Translations under genes and position numbers: made by a program
Notes under the pieces: model-generated
Database searches by the model: none
Seen by the model: only the letters and a program-made list of their open reading frames with translations
What the model was told of the DNA's origin: nothing
In this document: positions 6,098-20,699 of the stretch, piece after piece
How the letters are laid out: every line of letters begins with the position of its first letter
How positions within the stretch are numbered: position 1 is the stretch's first letter
From: Xylanibacter ruminicola 23
Lineage (GTDB): Bacteria; Bacteroidota; Bacteroidia; Bacteroidales; Bacteroidaceae
Assembly (NCBI RefSeq): GCF_000025925.1
Contig: NC_014033.1
Location: 3,000,001-3,032,000, forward strand
Length of the DNA stretch: 32,000 nt
Reading direction: 5' to 3'

Positions 6098-8449
6098 ATG
6101 AAAAGATTTGTTTTAGGAATGGCTGCATTAGTGTGTGCAGCAGGCGCAAACGCACAGCGTAAAGCAGCCCTCTACGATTCTACACAAGTAGAAGCGCTGA
6201 ACGAAATTGTAGTAAAAGGTGTCAGGACACAGAAAAATGCACCATTTGCAGTAGCAAACATCAAGAAAAAGGAGCTTAACGCTTTCTCGAACACAGGAAA
6301 AGAATTGCCTTTCCTCTTTTCGCAGACCCCAGGTGTACTGGCTTGGAGCGAAAACGGACTGGGCACAGGTACTACTTATATGCGCATTCGTGGTGCAGGC
6401 GATTCGCGCATCAACGTAACACTGGATGGCGTACCCCTGAATTCGCCTGAAGATCAGTGTGTTTTCTGGGCCAACATGAACTCTTACGGTTCGCTGTTAG
6501 GTAGTGTACAGATTCAGCGCGGTGTAGGCACATCAACCAACGGTGATGGCGCCTTTGGCGGAACTGTAGCACTCGCTTCAGCCATTCCAAATCAGAAGGC
6601 TGGGGGAGAAGTGTCAGTATCATACGGCTCATTCAACACATTCAATGTAGGTGGAAAGTTCTCAACAGGTTTACTGTGGAATCATCTGATTTTTGATGGT
6701 GCCTATCACGAGACCAATACTGATGGATTTATCCATGGAACCAGCGGACGCAGCGGTTCTTACTATGGCGGACTCACCTGGATTGGCAACAAGTTCCAGA
6801 TTCGTTATAAGAACATCGGAAACTTTGAAAAAACCGGTCAGGCTTGGAACGGCGTAACAGCAGGCGACAACGATATGAGTCTGATGGACGGAACTTACGG
6901 TATCAACACTGGCATCAAGACCTACAAGGATATGTGGAACGCCGGTCTGGGCAAGTACAACTCGCTGTACGAATACCTGACTGGTTACGAAAAAGATGCC
7001 AACGGCAACTATCCCACAGCGCGCTATCAGCTGAACGACGGCAGCTATTGGAACAAAACCACCGATAACTTCTGGCAGAACCACAACATCCTCTCAGCCG
7101 CCTACGATATCAACGACAACTGGAGCATTTCAGGTTCGCTGCACTACACTTACGGCTACGGCTATTATAACGAGTTCCGTCCTCAGAACAAGCTGAAGAA
7201 GTTTGGCATGACCTACAGCGGCGTTAAAAAGACCGACTTCGTGCGCCAGAAAGGACTGAGCCAGAACACTTACGGTTTTATCTGGAATGCAAACTACAAG
7301 AACGATGCATGGGATGTTATCGGCGGCATGTCGCTTCAGGAGTTCGACGGCAATCACTTTGGTTATGTTACCTATATTGCCAACGATGATGTACGAAAGA
7401 AATACATGTCTAATGGCGACTACAAATACTACGATTCTGATGCCACCAAGTTTGATGGTAGCGCCTTTGTAAAGGCTGCTTATCACATCAACGAACAGTG
7501 GGATATCTTCGGCGACCTGCAGTATCGCTACGTACAGTACGAAAGTAACGGTATTAACGATAAGTTCTACGAAGAGGGCAGCAGCTATTACAACCAGCGC
7601 CTCGATATCGATCAGAAGTATCGTTTCCTGAATCCCAAGGCCGGTTTCTCTTGGAATCTGAACAATCACCGCATTTACGGATCGGTAGCACTTAGCCACC
7701 GCGAACCAGAACGTAATAACTTTACAGATAATGGTGCAAAGCCATTCCCTAAGGCCGAAAGCCTGTTAGATTACGAGTTGGGTTACACCTTTAACAACGA
7801 CATCTTCCGCTTTGGTGTAAACCTTTATTACATGGACTACACCAACCAGTTTGTACAGACTGGCGAGAAGAGTGATATTGGCGAGGATCTTACCACAAAC
7901 ATCAAAGACTCATACCGTATGGGCGTAGAAATCCAGGGTGGGGTAGATGTTACCTCTTGGCTCAGCATTGAGGGTAATGCTTCACTCAGCCAGAATAAAA
8001 TCAAAGACTTCGACGAGGTGGCCAGCGTAAACTGGGAAGAGTCGTTCCGCACTATCCACTACGACAACTCTACACTTGCTTTCTCACCCTCAACCATCCT
8101 GAACGGTTTTGTAAACCTGCATTGGAATGGTTTGCAGGCTGTATGGCACACCAATTTTGTAAGCCGTCAGTACCTGGATAATACAGAGAACGCTGATCGT
8201 TCGCTGCCTTGCTACTCAGCTTCTGATGCCAACATCAGCTACACCTGGAAACCCAATAAAGCCATCAAGGAGTGCATCTTCGGTCTGAATTTCAACAACA
8301 TCTTCAATCGTCGCTATGCCGCCAATGGCTGGGTATATTCAAGCATCGTTGAAGAATACGGTCATCCCAACGAGAACCGCTACTATCAGATTGGATTCAT
8401 TCCTATGGCAGGCTTTACAATGATGGGTAATGTAACACTCCGATTCTAA
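6098..8449 (+). CDS. TonB-dependent outer-membrane receptor, TPP-riboswitch controlled (probable thiamine uptake)
   Basis: Signal peptide MKRFVLGMAALVCAAGANAQ. Plug-domain motifs (IVVKG, IRGAGDSRINVTLDGVPLN), a long beta-barrel region and a terminal aromatic residue (TLRF). The substrate is inferred from the riboswitch context. Confidence 0.85.
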   Translation: MKRFVLGMAALVCAAGANAQRKAALYDSTQVEALNEIVVKGVRTQKNAPFAVANIKKKELNAFSNTGKELPFLFSQTPGVLAWSENGLGTGTTYMRIRGAGDSRINVTLDGVPLNSPEDQCVFWANMNSYGSLLGSVQIQRGVGTSTNGDGAFGGTVALASAIPNQKAGGEVSVSYGSFNTFNVGGKFSTGLLWNHLIFDGAYHETNTDGFIHGTSGRSGSYYGGLTWIGNKFQIRYKNIGNFEKTGQAWNGVTAGDNDMSLMDGTYGINTGIKTYKDMWNAGLGKYNSLYEYLTGYEKDANGNYPTARYQLNDGSYWNKTTDNFWQNHNILSAAYDINDNWSISGSLHYTYGYGYYNEFRPQNKLKKFGMTYSGVKKTDFVRQKGLSQNTYGFIWNANYKNDAWDVIGGMSLQEFDGNHFGYVTYIANDDVRKKYMSNGDYKYYDSDATKFDGSAFVKAAYHINEQWDIFGDLQYRYVQYESNGINDKFYEEGSSYYNQRLDIDQKYRFLNPKAGFSWNLNNHRIYGSVALSHREPERNNFTDNGAKPFPKAESLLDYELGYTFNNDIFRFGVNLYYMDYTNQFVQTGEKSDIGEDLTTNIKDSYRMGVEIQGGVDVTSWLSIEGNASLSQNKIKDFDEVASVNWEESFRTIHYDNSTLAFSPSTILNGFVNLHWNGLQAVWHTNFVSRQYLDNTENADRSLPCYSASDANISYTWKPNKAIKECIFGLNFNNIFNRRYAANGWVYSSIVEEYGHPNENRYYQIGFIPMAGFTMMGNVTLRF

Positions 8450-12727: not shown

Positions 12728-13106
12728 GCGCCCCGATAACAACTGCCGAAGTAACACCAGTAGCATTAGCCGCCAAATCAAGCCAATCGCCACTGCGATG
12801 CCCAAACGTACAGTATTCCTGTAACAGCTCCAACACACCACTCATAACGATTGGTGCCAGCCAAGCCCAAAAGAACAGCTTCTCGTAATCTGCCTGCTTA
12901 TGCTTGCAGGTATACTCTATCCATACTACGATGAACGTACAACCATACATCAGGATATGCACCCATTTATCGGCAAACTCCACATTGTCGAGTGGTGTCT
13001 CTGGAAAAAAGGGCACCAATGAAAGAATCCATATCATTGCGATACAGACCATTGAAAAAGGGTACTTTCTTAAGAAATGAAACAAAAAACTCATATTTAC
13101 TTGCAA
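12699..13106 (-). CDS. VanZ-like family membrane protein
   Basis: Four TM segments with the VanZ-type motifs DKWVH and ELLQE...R.GDWLDLAANATG. The start is uncertain (13106, 13094 or 13052). The 3' end overlaps the CYTH gene by 29 nt (convergent). Confidence 0.7.
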   Translation of the reverse strand: MQVNMSFLFHFLRKYPFSMVCIAMIWILSLVPFFPETPLDNVEFADKWVHILMYGCTFIVVWIEYTCKHKQADYEKLFFWAWLAPIVMSGVLELLQEYCTFGHRSGDWLDLAANATGVTSAVVIGALIWYFRPKK

Positions 13107-13114
13107 TTTAGGTG

Positions 13115-13122
13115 CAAAATTA
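13115..13122 (-). promoter_or_regulatory. -7 promoter box (TAATTTTG on the minus strand) for the VanZ-like gene
   Basis: The reverse complement of caaaatta matches TAnnTTTG. It is only 9 nt from the ATG at 13106, so either a near-leaderless mRNA or a downstream start is used. Confidence 0.35.
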
Positions 13123-13134
13123 AGAAATTATTTA

Positions 13135-13142
13135 TACTTTTG
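13135..13142 (+). promoter_or_regulatory. -7 promoter box TACTTTTG for the SNF transporter pair
   Basis: TAnnTTTG match 25 nt upstream of the ATG at 13167. Confidence 0.45.
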
Positions 13143-13166
13143 CAATCAAAATTTAAAAAAGTTGAT

Positions 13167-14531
13167 ATGACAAAACTTGAAAGGGCAAGTTTCGGTAGTA
13201 AATTAGGTGTAATTCTGGCCACAGCAGGTTCGGCTGTTGGCTTAGGCAATATATGGCGCTTTCCGTATATGACAGGACAGAATGGTGGCGCCGTTTTCAT
13301 TATTATCTATGTGTTCTGTATCCTGTTGTTGGGCATTCCATGTATGATAAGCGAGTTTATTATTGGTCGTCATGGTCAGGCAAACACAGCTCGCGCATTC
13401 CGTATCATGTCGGGCGATACCATCTGGTCGCTCATTGGCTATATGGGGGTGCTTACAGGTTTTCTTATCTCAGGCTATTATGCTGTGGTATCCGGCTGGT
13501 GCCTCGAGTACGTATGGGCCTCGCTTTCAGGCAAACTCTTAGGCAATCCCGACTATATCCAATCGTACTTCGTCACGTTCTCTCAGGATCCTATCAAGCC
13601 TGTATTCTGGACGTTTATCATTCTGCTGGGCACCTATATTATTATTGAGAATGGTGTACGCAACGGTATTGAGAAGGCATCAAAGCTTATGATGCCCATA
13701 TTGTTTATACTGTTGCTCATCATTGTTGTAGCATCGTGCATGCTGCCAAATGCCGAAAAGGGTATCGAGTTCTTATTTAAGCCCGATATTTCGAAACTAA
13801 ACAGCGATGTATTCCTAGCAGCCTTAGGCCAGTCGTTCTACTCGCTGAGTATTGCAATGGGATGTATCTGCACCTATGCCAGCTACTATTCTAAGCAAAC
13901 CAATCTCACGGCTTCGGCTGTAAATATCAGTATCATCGATTTCCTGGTAGCCCTGCTGGCCGGACTGATTATCTTCCCTGCAGCCTTCTCAGTAGGAGTT
14001 AATCCCGATAGTGGTCCTTCGCTCATATTTATCACGTTGCCTAACGTATTCCACCAGGCATTTGGAAATATTGCAAGTTTAGGATACATTATTTCAGTAC
14101 TGTTTTATACCTTACTCTCGATGGCAGCACTTACATCACTCATGTCGTTGCACGAAGTAAGCACAGCATTCCTTGAGGAGGAGCTTGGCACCACCCGCAA
14201 ACGTGCGGCTATGTTTGTAACAATCGGCAGCATTCTGGTTGGTACCGTCTGCTCATTGTCGCTCGGTCCTTGGCAGGACTTTAAATTGTTCGACATGACC
14301 ATCTTCGACCTCTTCGACTTTGTAACTGGTCAGTTGTTCCTGCCTATCGTGGGCTTCCTTACCTGTATCTTTATCGGCTGGTATGTGCCACATAAGATAG
14401 TACGCGATGAGTTTACCAATATGGGCACCTTGCGCAATGAACATCTGTTTCATAGCTACATCTTCCTTGTAAAGTATGTGTGTCCTATCTGCATACTGTT
14501 TATATTCCTTCACCAATTCGGACTATTGTAA
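13167..14531 (+). CDS. Sodium-dependent transporter, neurotransmitter:sodium symporter (SNF) family, copy 1
   Basis: NSS signature GSAVGLGNIWRFPYMTGQNGGAVF with about 11-12 TM segments. I place the start at the internal Met (MTKLERASFGSKLG) because the track's longer ORF from 13077 runs through the promoter box. Confidence 0.9.
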   Translation: MTKLERASFGSKLGVILATAGSAVGLGNIWRFPYMTGQNGGAVFIIIYVFCILLLGIPCMISEFIIGRHGQANTARAFRIMSGDTIWSLIGYMGVLTGFLISGYYAVVSGWCLEYVWASLSGKLLGNPDYIQSYFVTFSQDPIKPVFWTFIILLGTYIIIENGVRNGIEKASKLMMPILFILLLIIVVASCMLPNAEKGIEFLFKPDISKLNSDVFLAALGQSFYSLSIAMGCICTYASYYSKQTNLTASAVNISIIDFLVALLAGLIIFPAAFSVGVNPDSGPSLIFITLPNVFHQAFGNIASLGYIISVLFYTLLSMAALTSLMSLHEVSTAFLEEELGTTRKRAAMFVTIGSILVGTVCSLSLGPWQDFKLFDMTIFDLFDFVTGQLFLPIVGFLTCIFIGWYVPHKIVRDEFTNMGTLRNEHLFHSYIFLVKYVCPICILFIFLHQFGLL

Positions 14532-15884
14532 ATGGAGAACAGAGGTACATTTGGCAGCAAACTGGCCATTATCCTGACTACAGCAGGATCGGCCGTAGGA
14601 TTAGGAAACATCTGGCGCTTTCCATTCATGACGGGTCAGAATGGCGGTGCCGCTTTCATACTTATCTACCTGGGATGTGTGCTGATATTAGGCATTCCAG
14701 GTATGATTAGCGAATTTGTAGTTGGCCGTTACTCACAATCCAACGCTGCCAGAGCTTATGGCAACGTAGGATTCAAGCGCGCCAAGTATATTGGCTACTT
14801 GGGCATTCTTACATCTACCATTATCCTTGGCTTCTATGCCGTTGTGGCCGGTTGGTGCTTGCAATACCTGTATGCCTCGATAACTGGTAAGCTGATTGGT
14901 GATACCAGCTACATCATCGAATACTTTAAAAACTTTTCGAGCGACCCCATCCGTCCCTGCTTGTGGGGTGTTGGCTTTGTACTGATTACACACTATGTAG
15001 TGGCCAAAGGCGTAAACGATGGTATAGAACGAGCATCCAAGTTGCTCATGCCGCTTTTGCTCATACTGCTGGTTATCATTGTTATTGCATCGTGCCTGCT
15101 TCCAGGTGCTTCAAAAGGTATAGAATTCCTGCTCAAGCCAGATTTCTCGAAAGTAAGCAGCAATGTATTCCTCGAGGCTTTAGGCCAGGCTTTCTTCTCG
15201 TTAAGCTTGGGTACCGCTTGTTTGTGTACTTACGCTTCGTATTTTAAAAAAGATACCAACCTTGTTAAATCAGCTACTCAGATAGCCTTACTCGACTCGA
15301 TGATAGCCATCTTAGCAGGTTTGATGATATTCCCAGCCGCCTTCTCGGTTGGCGTACAGCCCGATAGCGGTCCATCGCTCATATTCATTACACTGCCTAA
15401 TGTGTTCCGTCAGGCGTTTGTAGGCATGCCTATCATTGGATTCGTTATCGCCATCCTGTTTTATGCCCTGCTGGTGTTTGCAGCCTTAACATCTACCATC
15501 TCTATGCACGAGATTGGTACAGCATTCTTCCACGAAGAGTTGCATCTGCCAAGAAACAAGGCCGCATGGATACTGACTACCGTTTGTGGACTGATAACCA
15601 TATTCTGCTCGCTATCCGTAGGAGCCTACAGTCAGATACAGGTATTCGGTATGTCGCTGATGGACTTCTGCGACTCGCTTACAGCGCAAATCATGCTACC
15701 CACTGGCGCCTTCTTTACCAGCATACTTATCGGATGGTTTGTTGAGCGCAAACTGGTACTCAATGAGTTTACAAACAACGGTTCGCTAAAGGCCACCTTT
15801 TTTAGCGCCTATCTGTTCTCTGTTAAGTTCATTGTTCCTCTCTGTATCCTATTAATATTCCTGCATCAGTTCCATATTATATGA
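14532..15884 (+). CDS. Sodium-dependent transporter, SNF family, copy 2 (tandem paralog)
   Basis: GSAVGLGNIWRFPFMTGQNGGAAF. It is collinear with copy 1 over its whole length. The ATG directly follows the stop of copy 1 (TAAATG). Confidence 0.9.
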   Translation: MENRGTFGSKLAIILTTAGSAVGLGNIWRFPFMTGQNGGAAFILIYLGCVLILGIPGMISEFVVGRYSQSNAARAYGNVGFKRAKYIGYLGILTSTIILGFYAVVAGWCLQYLYASITGKLIGDTSYIIEYFKNFSSDPIRPCLWGVGFVLITHYVVAKGVNDGIERASKLLMPLLLILLVIIVIASCLLPGASKGIEFLLKPDFSKVSSNVFLEALGQAFFSLSLGTACLCTYASYFKKDTNLVKSATQIALLDSMIAILAGLMIFPAAFSVGVQPDSGPSLIFITLPNVFRQAFVGMPIIGFVIAILFYALLVFAALTSTISMHEIGTAFFHEELHLPRNKAAWILTTVCGLITIFCSLSVGAYSQIQVFGMSLMDFCDSLTAQIMLPTGAFFTSILIGWFVERKLVLNEFTNNGSLKATFFSAYLFSVKFIVPLCILLIFLHQFHII

Positions 15885-16812: not shown

Positions 16813-16820
16813 TATATTTG
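16813..16820 (+). promoter_or_regulatory. -7 promoter box TATATTTG upstream of tatA
   Basis: TAnnTTTG match 28 nt upstream of the ATG at 16848. Confidence 0.45.
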
Positions 16821-16847: not shown

Positions 16848-17033
16848 ATGTTTGGATTAGGATTCCAGGAAATACTGGTTATTGCACTGATAGTATTGCT
16901 GTTCTTTGGCGGCAAGAAGATTCCTGAACTGATGCGTGGCCTGGGTAAAGGCGTAAAAAGCTTCAAGGAGGGAATGAACGAGGTTACAGACTTGAAAGAA
17001 GAGGTAGAAAAGGACGAGAAGAAGGATGCGTGA
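16848..17033 (+). CDS. tatA: Twin-arginine translocase subunit TatA/E
   Basis: 61 aa. MFGLGFQEILVIALIVLLFFGGKKIPELMRGLGKGVKSFKEG is the canonical TatA TM helix, hinge and amphipathic helix. Confidence 0.88.
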   Translation: MFGLGFQEILVIALIVLLFFGGKKIPELMRGLGKGVKSFKEGMNEVTDLKEEVEKDEKKDA

Positions 17034-17772
17034 TACACCCACAATGACGTTCTGGGATCATCTCGACGAACTGCGTGGGGTGATAGTCAGAGTGTTGGTG
17101 GTAACAGTCATTGGAGCATCAGTTGCCTTCTGCTTAAAGGACGAACTCTTTGCCATCGTACTGGCACCACGCTCCAGCGATTTCATCACCTACCAACTAT
17201 TGGGCGTAGAACCATTCTGTGTTCATCTGATGAACATCGGACTTACAGAACAGTTCATGGTTCACCTTAAAACAGCCTTCTATGCAGGCGTTCTGGTGGC
17301 TTCGCCTTATATCATCTACCAACTCTTCCGCTTTGTATCGCCAGCGCTCTATGACAACGAAAGGAAATACGCCACACTGCTCTGCTTTAGCGGCTACCTG
17401 ATGTTTATGCTGGGCACAGCACTCAACTATCTGCTGATATTCCCGCTTACCGTCAAGTTCCTTGGCACTTATCAGGTTAGTCCCGATGTAGCAAATATGC
17501 TCACATTGCAATCGTACATGGATACGTTGCTGATGATGAACCTGGTGATGGGTATTGTGTTCGAACTGCCTGTAGTAAGCTGGCTGTTAGGCAAGATGGG
17601 ACTGATTAATGCTGCGATGATGCAGAGCATACGCCGGCATGCTGTAGTAGCAATACTGGTTGTAGCTGCGATTATCACCCCCACTACCGATGCCTTTACG
17701 CTCATTGTGGTAGCATTGCCCATCTGGCTGCTCTACGAACTGAGCATTGTGATAGTAAGAATAACCGAATAG
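17026..17772 (+). CDS. tatC: Twin-arginine translocase subunit TatC
   Basis: TatC N-terminal motif FWDHLDELR followed by six TM segments. The start is either 17026 (8-nt overlap with tatA) or 17044 (MTFWDHLDELR). Confidence 0.88.
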   Translation: MRDTPTMTFWDHLDELRGVIVRVLVVTVIGASVAFCLKDELFAIVLAPRSSDFITYQLLGVEPFCVHLMNIGLTEQFMVHLKTAFYAGVLVASPYIIYQLFRFVSPALYDNERKYATLLCFSGYLMFMLGTALNYLLIFPLTVKFLGTYQVSPDVANMLTLQSYMDTLLMMNLVMGIVFELPVVSWLLGKMGLINAAMMQSIRRHAVVAILVVAAIITPTTDAFTLIVVALPIWLLYELSIVIVRITE

Positions 17773-17795: not shown

Positions 17796-19280
17796 ATGCT
17801 TCGTAAAATCAGAACCATCCTTGCAGCGGTGATGTTTGTACTGATCACCCTGCTGTTCCTCGACTTTACAGGAACGTTGCACCATTGGCTTTCATGGTGT
17901 GCCAAGATTCAGTTCTTGCCCGCAGTGATGGCACTCAATGTGGTAGTGGTAGCGGCATTTTTGATTATTACACTTATTTGTGGCCGCACTTACTGCTCTA
18001 TCATCTGTCCTATGGGCGTATTTCAGGACATACTAGCCCGACTGAACAGAAAAAAGAACAAATACAGCTATTCGAAAGAGGTTCGCTGGTTGCGTTACCC
18101 AGTACTTGTGGTATTTATCATTGCAGGTGTAGCTGGCATCGGCTCTATATTCCAGTTGTTAGCTCCTTATAGCAGCTACGGACGTATCGCCACCATGATA
18201 TTCCAGCCCGTTTGGAAGATGGGTAACAACATCTTAGCCGAACTGGCTGAGCGCGCCGATAGCTATGCTTTCTACAGCGTTGATACATGGATGCGCTCAA
18301 TGCCTGTATTCGTGATTGCTGCTGTTACCCTGGTAGTAATATTTATCTTGGCTTGGCGAGGCGGACGTACCTATTGCAACACCATCTGCCCAGTAGGTAC
18401 CATCCTGTCTTTCTTTGCCCGTTTCTCATGGCTTAAAATCCGATTCGACGAAGATAAGTGCAAGAACTGCTCACTCTGTTCAAAGAACTGCAAAGCATCT
18501 TGTATCGATTTTAAGACACACAGTATCGACTATACCCGTTGCGTGGTTTGTGGTAACTGTATCGATAGTTGTAAGTTTGGTGCGCTGAAGTACACAGCTG
18601 CCGGCCCATCAAAAAAGACAAATAAAGCAAACGATGCCAACCCCATCAATACCTCAAAGCGCTCGTTCCTGTTGGCAACAGCCTTGGTAACTACAGCCGC
18701 TTTGGCTCAGAAAAAGAAAGAGAAGCTGATGGATGGCGGACTGGCAGAACTGGAAGATAAGGTAGCTCCTGAGCGCCAGACACCGCTCACACCTCCAGGT
18801 TCGCTCTCGTTCCAGAATCTGGCCACACGATGCACAGGCTGCCAGCTTTGTGTATCAGAGTGCCCCAACCAGGTGTTGCGTCCTAGTAGCGATTTAATGC
18901 ACCTGATGCAGCCCACCATGTCGTACGAGCACGGCTATTGTCGCCCAGAGTGTACGCGTTGCTCTGAAGTTTGTCCTGCAGGTGCCATCCAGAAGGTTGA
19001 TAAAGAAGAGAAAACAGCCATCCAGATTGGTCATGCTGTTTGGATTAAGAAGAACTGTGTTCCCATTACCGATGGGGTAGAGTGCGGCAACTGTGCACGC
19101 CACTGTCCTTCGGGTGCTATCGAAATGGTTCCACTCGATGAGAACGATGAGGAATCACCAATGGTTCCTGCAATCAACGAGGCTGCATGTATTGGCTGCG
19201 GTGCCTGCGAGTATGTTTGTCCGGCTCGTCCATTCTCAGCTATCTATGTCGAGGGACACGAAGTTCACAAGAAGATTTAA
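17796..19280 (+). CDS. Membrane polyferredoxin: a NapH-like N-terminal half fused to a NapG-like C-terminal half
   Basis: The N-terminal half has about four TM segments, two GRTYCxxxCPxG motifs (CSIICP, CNTICP) and two CxxCxxCxxxC ferredoxin motifs. It is followed by an internal SKRSFLLATALVTTAALAQ segment. The C-terminal half has four more Cys cluster motifs (CTGCQLCVSECP, CRPECTRCSEVCP, CGNCARHCP, CIGCGACEYVCP). Confidence 0.8.
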   Translation: MLRKIRTILAAVMFVLITLLFLDFTGTLHHWLSWCAKIQFLPAVMALNVVVVAAFLIITLICGRTYCSIICPMGVFQDILARLNRKKNKYSYSKEVRWLRYPVLVVFIIAGVAGIGSIFQLLAPYSSYGRIATMIFQPVWKMGNNILAELAERADSYAFYSVDTWMRSMPVFVIAAVTLVVIFILAWRGGRTYCNTICPVGTILSFFARFSWLKIRFDEDKCKNCSLCSKNCKASCIDFKTHSIDYTRCVVCGNCIDSCKFGALKYTAAGPSKKTNKANDANPINTSKRSFLLATALVTTAALAQKKKEKLMDGGLAELEDKVAPERQTPLTPPGSLSFQNLATRCTGCQLCVSECPNQVLRPSSDLMHLMQPTMSYEHGYCRPECTRCSEVCPAGAIQKVDKEEKTAIQIGHAVWIKKNCVPITDGVECGNCARHCPSGAIEMVPLDENDEESPMVPAINEAACIGCGACEYVCPARPFSAIYVEGHEVHKKI

Positions 19281-19292: not shown

Positions 19293-20699
19293 ATGGAAAA
19301 GAAGAATATAACACGCCGTGCGTTCCTTAAGCTCTTTGGAGCAGGATCAGTAGCTACAGCCGCTACACTTGCAGGATGCAAAAGTGGCAATAAGGCAGGT
19401 AGTCAGGCAAAACAAGAATATAGGAACCAGGTTGAACCACCTGTTGGTCAGATGACCTATCGCGTTAACCCAAAGAATAAGGACAAGGTTTCTATTCTGG
19501 GCTATGGTATGATGCGCCTGCCATCTAAGGTGGATAACAGCGATGAGTTTGATCAGGACATGATTAACAAGCAAATCGATTATGCCTTGGCTCATGGTCT
19601 GAACTACATCGATACATCGCCTGTATATTGTCAGGGAAAGTCAGAGCGCTGCACAGGTATCGCCCTGAGCCGCCACAAGCGTAGCGAGTACTTTGTGGCC
19701 ACCAAACTCTCCAACTTCAACCACGACTACTGGTCATTCGAGAAGTCGAAGGAGATGTACCACAACTCTATGAAGGAGCTGCAAGTTGATTACATCGACT
19801 ACTATCTGCTGCATGCTGTAGGTGGCAGCATGGAGGAATTTAACGGGCGCTATGTGGATAATGGCATAATGGACTATCTGCTGAAGGAGCGCGAGGCAGG
19901 CCGCATTCGTAACCTGGGATTCTCGTTCCACGGTAAGCAGGAAGTGTTCGACGAGGTGCTGGCCCTCGACGAGAAGTACCATTGGGACTTTGTACAGATT
20001 GAGCTGAACTATCTGGATTGGGATTATGCCAACGAGATTAGTCAGAGCAACGTAGATGCCAGTTATCTATATGCCGAGCTGCAAAAGAAAGGCATACCTG
20101 CAGTTATTATGGAACCGCTGTTAGGAGGCCGATTGGCTAACCTCCCACAGTATCTGATGACAGAACTGAAGAGTCGCGACCCAGAGCGTAGCGTGGCATC
20201 ATGGGCTTTCCGCTATGCAGGCACCAACGAGGGCGTACTTACCGTATTGAGCGGTATGACCTATATGGAGCACCTGAAGGATAACCTGCTCTCGTACTGT
20301 CCGCTGAAACCACTTACCGAAGAGGAGATGCGATTCCTTGACAAGGATATCGCTCAGAAGATTGTAGGTCTCGAAAACATTCCTTGCAACGATTGTAAGT
20401 ACTGCATGCCTTGTCCTTACGGTGTGGATATACCAGCCATCTTTGTACACTACAACAAGTGCAAGAACGAGGGTTCGCTGCCTATGGGAGTGGGCGATGC
20501 TGAGTATCGCAAGCATCGTCGCCAGTATCTCATTTCGCTGGACCGTGTAGTTCCTCGCGATCGCCAGCCTGATCATTGCATCCAGTGCGGCCAGTGTGAG
20601 CCTCATTGTCCACAAAGCATTCGCATTCCACGCGAACTGGCAAAGATTGATGAGATGATTGAGAGCTTGAAGCGCAACCCAGAGGGCCCAGAAGTATAA
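19293..20699 (+). CDS. Aldo/keto reductase-family oxidoreductase with a Tat signal, a lipobox and a C-terminal 4Fe-4S ferredoxin domain
   Basis: The N-terminus MEKKNITRRAFLKLFGAGSVATAATLAGC carries the TRRAFLK twin-arginine consensus and the LAGC lipobox. The AKR core is recognisable (LGYGMMRLP, YIDTSPVY, DYYLLH). The C-terminus has CNDCKYCMPCP and CIQCGQCEPHCP. Confidence 0.85.
   Translation: MEKKNITRRAFLKLFGAGSVATAATLAGCKSGNKAGSQAKQEYRNQVEPPVGQMTYRVNPKNKDKVSILGYGMMRLPSKVDNSDEFDQDMINKQIDYALAHGLNYIDTSPVYCQGKSERCTGIALSRHKRSEYFVATKLSNFNHDYWSFEKSKEMYHNSMKELQVDYIDYYLLHAVGGSMEEFNGRYVDNGIMDYLLKEREAGRIRNLGFSFHGKQEVFDEVLALDEKYHWDFVQIELNYLDWDYANEISQSNVDASYLYAELQKKGIPAVIMEPLLGGRLANLPQYLMTELKSRDPERSVASWAFRYAGTNEGVLTVLSGMTYMEHLKDNLLSYCPLKPLTEEEMRFLDKDIAQKIVGLENIPCNDCKYCMPCPYGVDIPAIFVHYNKCKNEGSLPMGVGDAEYRKHRRQYLISLDRVVPRDRQPDHCIQCGQCEPHCPQSIRIPRELAKIDEMIESLKRNPEGPEV

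Follow-up and report, generated by a model that had tools for sequence, protein, structure and literature searches.

A polyferredoxin gene was analyzed in a stretch of 32,000 nucleotides (nt) from Xylanibacter ruminicola 23 (contig NC_014033.1, positions 3,000,001 to 3,032,000; this whole stretch is referred to as the window), and its product is in all likelihood a polytopic polyferredoxin targeted by both Sec and Tat, in which an N-terminal NapH-like part would be inserted into the membrane by Sec and a C-terminal NapG-like part would be exported by Tat from an internal signal. This architecture and its mechanism were published in 2017 (Tooke, Babot, Chandra, Buchanan & Palmer, eLife, PMC5449189) on the basis of a genome screen by TATFind and TMHMM, where the polyferredoxin of delta proteobacterium MLMS-1 (Q1NSB0) was called 'a fusion of NapH ... 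with NapG', and the dual Sec/Tat model for polyferredoxins was restated in a 2020 review. The initial annotation of the window had proposed the same dual route from the letters alone; the window protein is colinear with the homolog tested in 2017, and the finding presented here therefore confirms the idea and does not discover it. The open reading frame (ORF) and its parts, in window positions and with the strand in brackets, are the following:

17796..19280 (+): polyferredoxin ORF, 494 amino acids (aa), 54.7 kDa; NapH-like/NapG-like fusion, polytopic.
17796..18593 (+): NapH-like part, residues 1-266, supported by hydrophobic segments, Cys motifs and the hhalign match to E. coli NapH.
18594..18653 (+): linker, residues 267-286, K-rich, variable and predicted to be cytoplasmic.
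18654..18710 (+): predicted internal Tat signal and fifth transmembrane domain (TMD5), residues 287-305, with S-K-R-S-F-L, a 15-residue hydrophobic core (h-region) and A302-L-A304|Q305.
18711..18725 (+): KKKEK, residues 306-310, positive charges right behind the h-region, as in a Sec-avoidance signal.
18726..19277 (+): NapG-like domain (residues 311-494), predicted to be periplasmic; its 16 invariant Cys would bind four [4Fe-4S] clusters.

Four strong hydrophobic segments (residues 8-26, 44-62, 103-121 and 168-186, taken as transmembrane helices TM1-TM4) were found in the NapH-like part, together with two CX3CP motifs (GRTYCSIICPMG at C67-P72 and GRTYCNTICPVG at C194-P199) and two CxxCxxCxxxC motifs starting at residues 222 and 249. 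Lys and Arg make up 3/7 residues of the N-terminus, 9/40 of loop 2 and 18/103 of loop 4, as against 1/17 of loop 1, a distribution that fits the positive-inside rule for a predicted topology with both N- and C-terminus of this part inside and its Fe-S clusters in the cytoplasm. The rule is broken by the positive charges behind the fifth hydrophobic segment. Four further Cys groups follow in the C-terminal domain (346/349/352/356, 382/386/389/393, 421/430/433/437 and 465/468/471/475), and all 16 of these cluster Cys are invariant in a family alignment of 67 sequences that reaches down to 34% identity. The count of four transmembrane segments, two CX3CP motifs, two ferredoxin motifs and four C-terminal clusters given in the initial annotation was thereby borne out, and its placement of the internal segment (18654-18710 = S287-Q305) is exact by translation.

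The assignment of the two halves, likewise made beforehand from the sequence, agrees with the profile comparisons. The top NCBIfam match was NapH/MauN for residues 1-286 and NapG for residues 287-494, and when the family profile was aligned with hhalign to the references napH and napG of E. coli K-12 (locus L083), query residues 56-272 fell on NapH 94-283 (probability 99.3%, E 7e-21) and residues 281-487 on NapG 4-207 (probability 99.4%, E 4e-21). In the latter alignment the internal SKRSFLL sits on GRRRFLR, the N-terminal Tat motif of NapG, so that by position the internal segment is the homolog of a genuine Tat signal at an N-terminus. Pfam returned only Fer4-type domains, including Fer4_5 at 48-88, the stretch with the first CX3CP motif. 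The curated models were matched with 83.9 bits (TIGR02163, NapH/MauN, cut-off 213) and 76.2 bits (NF007013, NapH, cut-off 234) by the full-length protein, and with 68.5 bits (NF007012, NapG, cut-off 269) and 64.2 bits (TIGR00397, MauM/NapG, cut-off 178.85) by residues 287-494, while none of napA, napB or napC was found in the 32 kb window. Given scores so far under the cut-offs and the lack of a nap context, the protein is classed by sequence as NapH/NapG-like, i.e., related to both, being neither a NapH equivalog nor a component of Nap.

The segment between the halves, positions 18654-18710 of the window, translates to SKRSFLLATALVTTAALAQ (S287-KRSFLLATALVTTAALA-Q305) and is followed by KKKEK. 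Its core, SFLLATALVTTAALA, 15 residues long, is the fifth most hydrophobic stretch of the protein and lies far below TM1-4 on both scales used (Kyte-Doolittle, taken from Biopython, and Hessa 2005): the Kyte-Doolittle mean is 0.97 for the internal segment vs. 2.35-2.86 for TM1-4, and the Hessa sum over the best 19-residue window is +6.8 vs. -2.65 to +0.02. Four Lys or Arg residues lie within the 10 residues past the h-region (QKKKEK). When the protein was shuffled, a pattern of [KR]R-x-F-[LIVM] followed by at least 11 uncharged residues appeared anywhere in it in 322 of 200,000 shuffles (0.16%); as it is this rare, falls exactly at the domain junction and is conserved, the Tat-like pattern is more than chance.

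Conservation was followed at several depths. An exhaustive search of representatives yielded 1,297 cluster representatives of the family at E<1e-30, and in a diverse set of 128 full-length representatives a paired K/R motif was present in 122. By the strict pattern, 87 of these 128 were scored as RR, 27 as KR and 6 as RK; a small number of the assignments are spurious, and some sequences scored as 'none' do have RR but an interruption in the h-region. The h-region has a median length of 16 residues, with 2.2 K/R on average in the ten residues behind it. R289 is kept by at least 90% of the 67 sequences, which reach down to 34% identity. Among Bacteroidales orthologs it is found in 83/83, with F291 in 80/83 and L292 in 74/83, so the expectation of the initial annotation that orthologs would keep K/R-R-x-F-L at this position was right; position 288 is R in 64, K in 18 and L in 1, and the linker just before it (267-286) is nearly random, with a column entropy above 3 bits over the 83 orthologs. 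KR dominates close to the query (118 KR and 2 RR in 120 close homologs of 84-90% identity); among the Bacteroidales orthologs it is limited to rumen Prevotella relatives of the query, where it is interleaved with RR lineages, and it is present in 17/82 related loci. At the codon level, a single transition separates AAG (Lys) at position 288 from AGG (Arg). A genome scan gave at least 600 matches, the best 80 of which are all Bacteroidales-like (Prevotella, Bacteroides, Phocaeicola, Alistipes, Parabacteroides, Muribaculaceae, Odoribacter and Butyricimonas), and the closest among the matches listed is a rumen Prevotellaceae metagenome-assembled genome with 85% identity. Three loci about 60% identical to the query carry the labels Paratractidigestivibacter (L032), Coprobacillus (L051) and Clostridiaceae (L058), and are probably mis-binned or mislabelled metagenome bins.

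The breadth of this sampling also settles whether two genes were joined by a sequencing or assembly error, a suggestion for which the coincidence of the domain boundary with a signal sequence is the one argument. A single ORF of ~490 aa was found in 120 close homologs, in 82 loci of many genera and in more than 100 full-length representatives, the continuous frame recurs in hundreds of independent assemblies, and neither a Met nor a start codon is present at the junction, which leaves an artefact with practically no probability. A clean example of split orthologs (a NapH-like gene paired with an RR-bearing NapG-like gene) was not found among close relatives. Five short representatives (P0151, P0155, P0172, P0239 and P0250) were considered as split genes and rejected, since they look like fragments, deletions or chimeras. 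In the nap operon of E. coli K-12, napG lies upstream of napH; the order in the fusion, NapH-like then NapG-like, is the reverse, and simple read-through of a gene pair of the E. coli type therefore does not account for the gene.

Experiments on the MLMS-1 homolog provide the functional side of the argument. Polytopic polyferredoxins were described as having a positive predicted ΔGapp for TMD5, low hydrophobicity and positive charges after TMD5; MBP and AmiA fused after the TMD5 of the MLMS-1 protein were periplasmic only in the presence of Tat and of an intact RR, and Leu substitutions or removal of positive charge caused Sec to insert this domain (PMC5449189). In BLASTP, the window protein matches Q1NSB0 with E 3e-10 and 25% identity over residues 63-296 (the comparison covers residues 1-364 of Q1NSB0, taken from the supplementary file of PMC5449189), and the two sequences run colinearly across the pair of CX3CP motifs, the Fe-S motifs and the twin motif, where KR falls on RR.

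These observations bear directly on a first alternative, namely that the segment is an ordinary fifth TM helix inserted by Sec, its K/R-R pair being nothing other than positive-inside charge, and that the domain behind it crosses the membrane unfolded and acquires its clusters outside or carries none. Such a helix would suit the Lys at the first position, and TM helices are often preceded by a pair of basic residues. Yet the whole S-[RK]-R-x-F-L consensus is conserved and not charge alone, with the second Arg invariant, the segment is far less hydrophobic than TM1-4, positive charges behind a helix oppose Sec insertion in such an orientation, and export of the homolog needed Tat and RR (PMC5449189). 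The invariance of the 16 cluster Cys speaks in the same direction, periplasmic [4Fe-4S] proteins being assembled in the cytoplasm and exported by Tat (2020 review), and we therefore consider a Sec-only route highly unlikely.

A second alternative would leave the C-terminal domain in the cytoplasm, with the segment acting as a hydrophobic linker or re-entrant helix in a cytoplasm-facing polyferredoxin. A structural model was predicted with AlphaFold2 (AF2) from the 67-sequence alignment, with a mean predicted local distance difference test score (pLDDT) of 91.2 and a predicted template modelling score (pTM) of 0.88; pLDDT drops below 50 at residues 275-292 and is ~50 for the helix predicted at 289-302 and for the stretch right behind it. 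The low confidence in this region would be compatible with a cytoplasmic domain, and the pTM of 0.88 could mean that AF2 packs both Fe-S domains together. On the opposite side, in the alignment with periplasmic NapG the segment falls on that protein's N-terminal Tat signal, the Tat consensus is conserved, reporters on the MLMS-1 homolog reached the periplasm (PMC5449189), and the gene adjacent to the polyferredoxin gene in 78/82 related loci encodes an aldo/keto reductase (AKR)/Fe-S protein, a predicted Tat-exported lipoprotein that would need a periplasmic electron donor. A cytoplasmic location is very unlikely in view of these points. When the PDB was searched by sequence and, with Foldseek, by the AF2 model, nothing beyond generic 2x[4Fe-4S] ferredoxins was matched and no solved NapH-like membrane domain came up, and the structure consequently gave no information on topology.

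Several observations weigh against dual targeting by Sec and Tat and have to be set beside this evidence. The first twin residue is Lys (K288), not Arg, and a single Lys in the twin motif is known to be tolerated just in some natural Tat signals (TtrB, plant Rieske). The confidence of the AF2 model is low across residues 281-310 (pLDDT ~43-53), and the structure searches yielded generic ferredoxin folds only. Scores of 81-84 bits vs. 213 for the NapH model and of 68 vs. 269 for the NapG model are far under the curated cut-offs, so that functional equivalence to NapGH is not established. The genes tatA and tatC, which lie immediately upstream in the window (the initial annotation had called TatAC adjacent) and were found in the flanking sequence retrieved for 39/82 related loci (up to 6 kb per side, upstream or downstream), do not adjoin the polyferredoxin gene in roughly half of the 82 loci compared. 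Finally, an RR-to-KK exchange in the MLMS-1 homolog abolished export (Tooke et al. 2017, PMC5449189), and even conservative Lys substitutions in the twin motif are generally poorly tolerated (2020 review).

With these reservations, the route that we favor for the window protein starts with the co-translational insertion of the NapH-like part by Sec and the signal recognition particle (SRP), which would place four TM helices in the membrane and leave both ends of this part, and its two [4Fe-4S] motifs, in the cytoplasm; the NapH-like part, which also holds the two CX3CP motifs, would form the connection to the quinone pool. The fifth segment would then be released by Sec on the cytoplasmic side, because it is too short, too weakly hydrophobic and followed by KKKEK. 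The NapG-like domain would fold in the cytoplasm and take up its four [4Fe-4S] clusters there, after which the membrane-tethered S-K-R-S-F-L may be bound by TatC, encoded upstream together with TatA, and the folded domain be moved to the periplasm. Once exported, it would most likely relay electrons between the menaquinone pool and the Tat-exported AKR/Fe-S lipoprotein. Sequence anatomy, the relationship to NapH and NapG, motif conservation and gene linkage are what the analysis shows directly, whereas topology, export, partner and cleavage of the window protein are what we infer here, with Tat- and RR-dependence carried over from the MLMS-1 homolog. As for the h-region, it would either stay as a fifth TM anchor or be cut by signal peptidase I (SPI) after A304, the two outcomes being about equally likely.

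Cleavage after A304 appears plausible, at even odds or a little below, from the conservation of the predicted SPI site, A302-L-A304|Q305, which follows the 15-residue h-region. An A-Q pair is found 15-19 residues past the twin motif in 75/82 Bacteroidales orthologs, always with Ala at -1 and with only A, L, V or I at -3, and the seven orthologs without A-Q have a small residue at -1 as well, although the h-region residues themselves vary among the 83 orthologs. In Bacteroidetes, Gln occupies +1 in an average of 71% of SPI substrates, a preference known as the 'Q-rule' (PMC5837995). Each of the four signal peptides of SPI type predicted in the window likewise ends in A|Q (ORFs starting at 6098, 25526, 26931 and 30106, with ANA|QRK, LSA|QFL, TAA|QSK and IHA|QRM in this order), by which the organism follows the Bacteroidetes Q-rule. 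In three representatives (P0251, P0178 and P0204) the internal h-region ends in lipobox-like LLAASC, LATAC and GLQSC, respectively, so that the NapG-like domain might be released and lipidated in some lineages.

The rival outcome shares the Tat export step and differs in that the segment would be a strictly uncleaved fifth TM anchor, the protein remaining a single 54.7 kDa chain in which A-L-A|Q is incidental. We hold this to be nearly an even prospect. It accords with the model of Tooke et al. (PMC5449189), in which TMD5 is a permanent helix and the release of AmiA from the MLMS-1 fusion required an engineered, artificial SPI site, with the AF2 helix at residues 289-302, with the uncleaved Tat signal anchors that Rieske proteins keep (2020 review), and with the many family members outside Bacteroidota that have no obvious A-x-A site. 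It is harder to reconcile with an uncharged stretch of 15-16 residues, which has the length of a signal peptide and not of a TM helix, with an A-Q kept in 75 orthologs despite a variable h-region, with the preference for Gln at +1 in the phylum and in all four SPI signals of the window, and with the lipobox-like Cys at the same place in three representatives.

A more specific proposal, which we put forward tentatively and with somewhat less confidence than even odds, is that the internal Tat signal of Bacteroidales is truly cleavable, with an SPI cut at A304|Q305 and conversion of Q305 to pyroglutamate, and that the tether relaxes the demand on the first Arg. If true, one gene would give rise to two subunits (computed fragments of 34.0 and 20.7 kDa), a NapH-like membrane protein of 34 kDa with five helices and a soluble, periplasmic NapG-like ferredoxin of 21 kDa, i.e., a Tat-dependent 'polyprotein', and KR would spread at the tethered internal signal but not at the partner's N-terminal one. 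The literature searches turned up no account of an internal Tat signal being cleaved natively, and Tooke et al. are silent on it; the conserved A-x-A|Q site is absent from the literature searched and appears to be new.

The genes around the polyferredoxin gene that make up its presumptive operon are listed below in the order of the window:

16813..16820 (+): -7-type promoter element TATATTTG, ~28 nt upstream of tatA; candidate operon promoter.
16848..17033 (+): tatA, 61 aa, TatA/E family (Pfam TatA_B_E, E 1e-15; TIGR01411, 64.3 bits, cut-off 53.9).
17026..17772 (+): tatC, 248 aa (Pfam TatC, E 1.9e-65; TIGR00945, 173 bits, cut-off 132.7).
19293..20699 (+): AKR with C-terminal Fe-S domain, 468 aa, with N-terminal Tat signal and lipobox (TRRAFLK...TLAGC).

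The gaps in the series tatA, tatC, polyferredoxin, AKR are -8 (an overlap), 23 and 12 nt, and the four-gene block is kept in close relatives, whose flanking genes differ. This linkage, like the polyferredoxin-AKR pair in 78/82 loci and the tatAC genes near 39/82, speaks for the favored route. The element TATATTTG at 16813-16820, which lies in the 82-nt gap after a gene for a ComEA-like HHH protein, matches TAnnTTTG, the -7 promoter consensus of Bacteroidetes; a scan for sigma-70 promoters and terminators was uninformative in this Bacteroidetes genome. As no tatB was found at the locus, the local system consists of TatAC only. Further upstream, at 13077-14531 and 14532-15884, two tandem genes of the SNF family (sodium:neurotransmitter symporter) stand back to back, and such a pair also precedes the tat cluster in the related locus L001; the listed start of the first adds ~30 odd residues, and its real start is probably the Met before TKLERASFGSKLG.

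The N-terminus of the AKR, MEKKNITRRAFLKLFGAGSVATAATLAGC, combines a Tat motif with a lipobox, from which the protein is predicted to be a periplasmic lipoprotein, and residues that match the catalytic positions of AKRs are present (D107, Y112, K138 and H174). It is unusual for an AKR to work in a compartment that lacks free NAD(P)H; the enzyme may carry a bound cofactor along on export, or may be driven by its own Fe-S clusters via the polyferredoxin. As a best guess, the pair would serve as a conduit, linked to quinone, for electrons to a reductase lipoprotein in the periplasm. In two distant members of the family (L084:3021-3920 and L085:5117-5995, ~36-40% identity) the neighbour is a DUF362 protein and not an AKR, and the one in L084 starts with MKRRQFIQTAAGG, a Tat signal (MKRRQFIQ). 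With this replacement, the polyferredoxin looks like a general module that may serve more than one kind of exported partner. Searches for literature on a Tat-exported AKR/Fe-S protein of Bacteroides found nothing, and the tatAC-polyferredoxin-AKR operon, absent from the literature searched, appears to be new.

The two signals of the pair can be compared within the same 79 genomes, where the N-terminal Tat signal of the AKR has RR in 79/79, a lone KK call having been an artefact of the search pattern, and the internal signal of the polyferredoxin reads KR in 17 genomes and is without the pair in 1. The relatedness of the genomes weakens any statistic on this contrast. The pair-less motif, in Phocaeicola oris (L050), reads NSLRSII. 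Weaker selection on the first Arg of an internal signal that is already membrane-tethered would fit these counts, and the change of the first Arg to Lys in a Prevotella subclade in which the neighbour's signal stays RR is absent from the literature searched and appears to be new.

Taken together, a very large clade of gut- and rumen-abundant Bacteroidales is placed in the polytopic polyferredoxin family, and the conserved partner of the polyferredoxin, the AKR/Fe-S lipoprotein, points to a quinone-linked reductase system in the periplasm of Prevotella and Bacteroides that is as yet uncharacterised. Searches that require RR would miss roughly a quarter of the polyferredoxin family; TATFind, which presumably accepts RR only, would have missed the KR members. 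The protein also offers a test case for the processing of an internal Tat signal by signal peptidase, which the published model does not address.

Among the closest known systems, the MLMS-1 polyferredoxin Q1NSB0 shares the architecture, with the same NapH-like part, twin motif, weak TMD5, positive charges and four-cluster NapG-like domain, and the same biogenesis logic of Sec first, then Tat, would apply to both. The window protein differs from it in having KR instead of RR, two instead of three cytoplasmic cluster motifs and a shorter linker. It also differs from the set of Tooke et al. in that Bacteroidetes are not among the phyla named there for polyferredoxins, and in that its gene stands in a tatA-tatC-polyferredoxin-AKR cluster and encodes a conserved A-x-A|Q, the paper being silent on partner enzyme and native cleavage (PMC5449189). 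With NapGH of E. coli and Wolinella succinogenes it shares the CX3CP motifs and C-terminal cytoplasmic Fe-S motifs of NapH and the Tat signal and four clusters of NapG. Unlike NapGH, it is one polypeptide in the order H then G, as opposed to separate genes with napG before napH in E. coli, and its putative partner is an AKR/Fe-S lipoprotein and not nitrate reductase.

The three-TM Rieske proteins are reportedly the founding dual Sec/Tat substrates, from the work of Keller et al. in 2012. Actinobacterial members (Sco2149, M. tuberculosis QcrA) have, like the window protein, an internal twin motif before a last weak TM helix that is followed by positive charges, and their Fe-S domain is exported folded, as is proposed here for the NapG-like domain. 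They belong to an unrelated family with a 2Fe-2S Rieske fold and two, not four, Sec-dependent helices, and their signal is regarded as an uncleaved anchor. Natural KR signals are represented by Salmonella TtrB and the plant thylakoid Rieske protein, where they are N-terminal and the second Arg and the hydrophobic positions are kept, whereas the K/R switch of the polyferredoxin concerns an internal signal, in 17/79 genomes. A last parallel is the Bradyrhizobium FbcH cytochrome b-c1 precursor, for which cleavage at an internal Sec-type signal peptide was demonstrated: if the polyferredoxin is cut, one gene would likewise yield two subunits of a membrane complex through an internal signal processed by signal peptidase, although the two proteins are unrelated, the signal of FbcH is of the Sec type, and cleavage of the polyferredoxin is so far a prediction from its conserved site.

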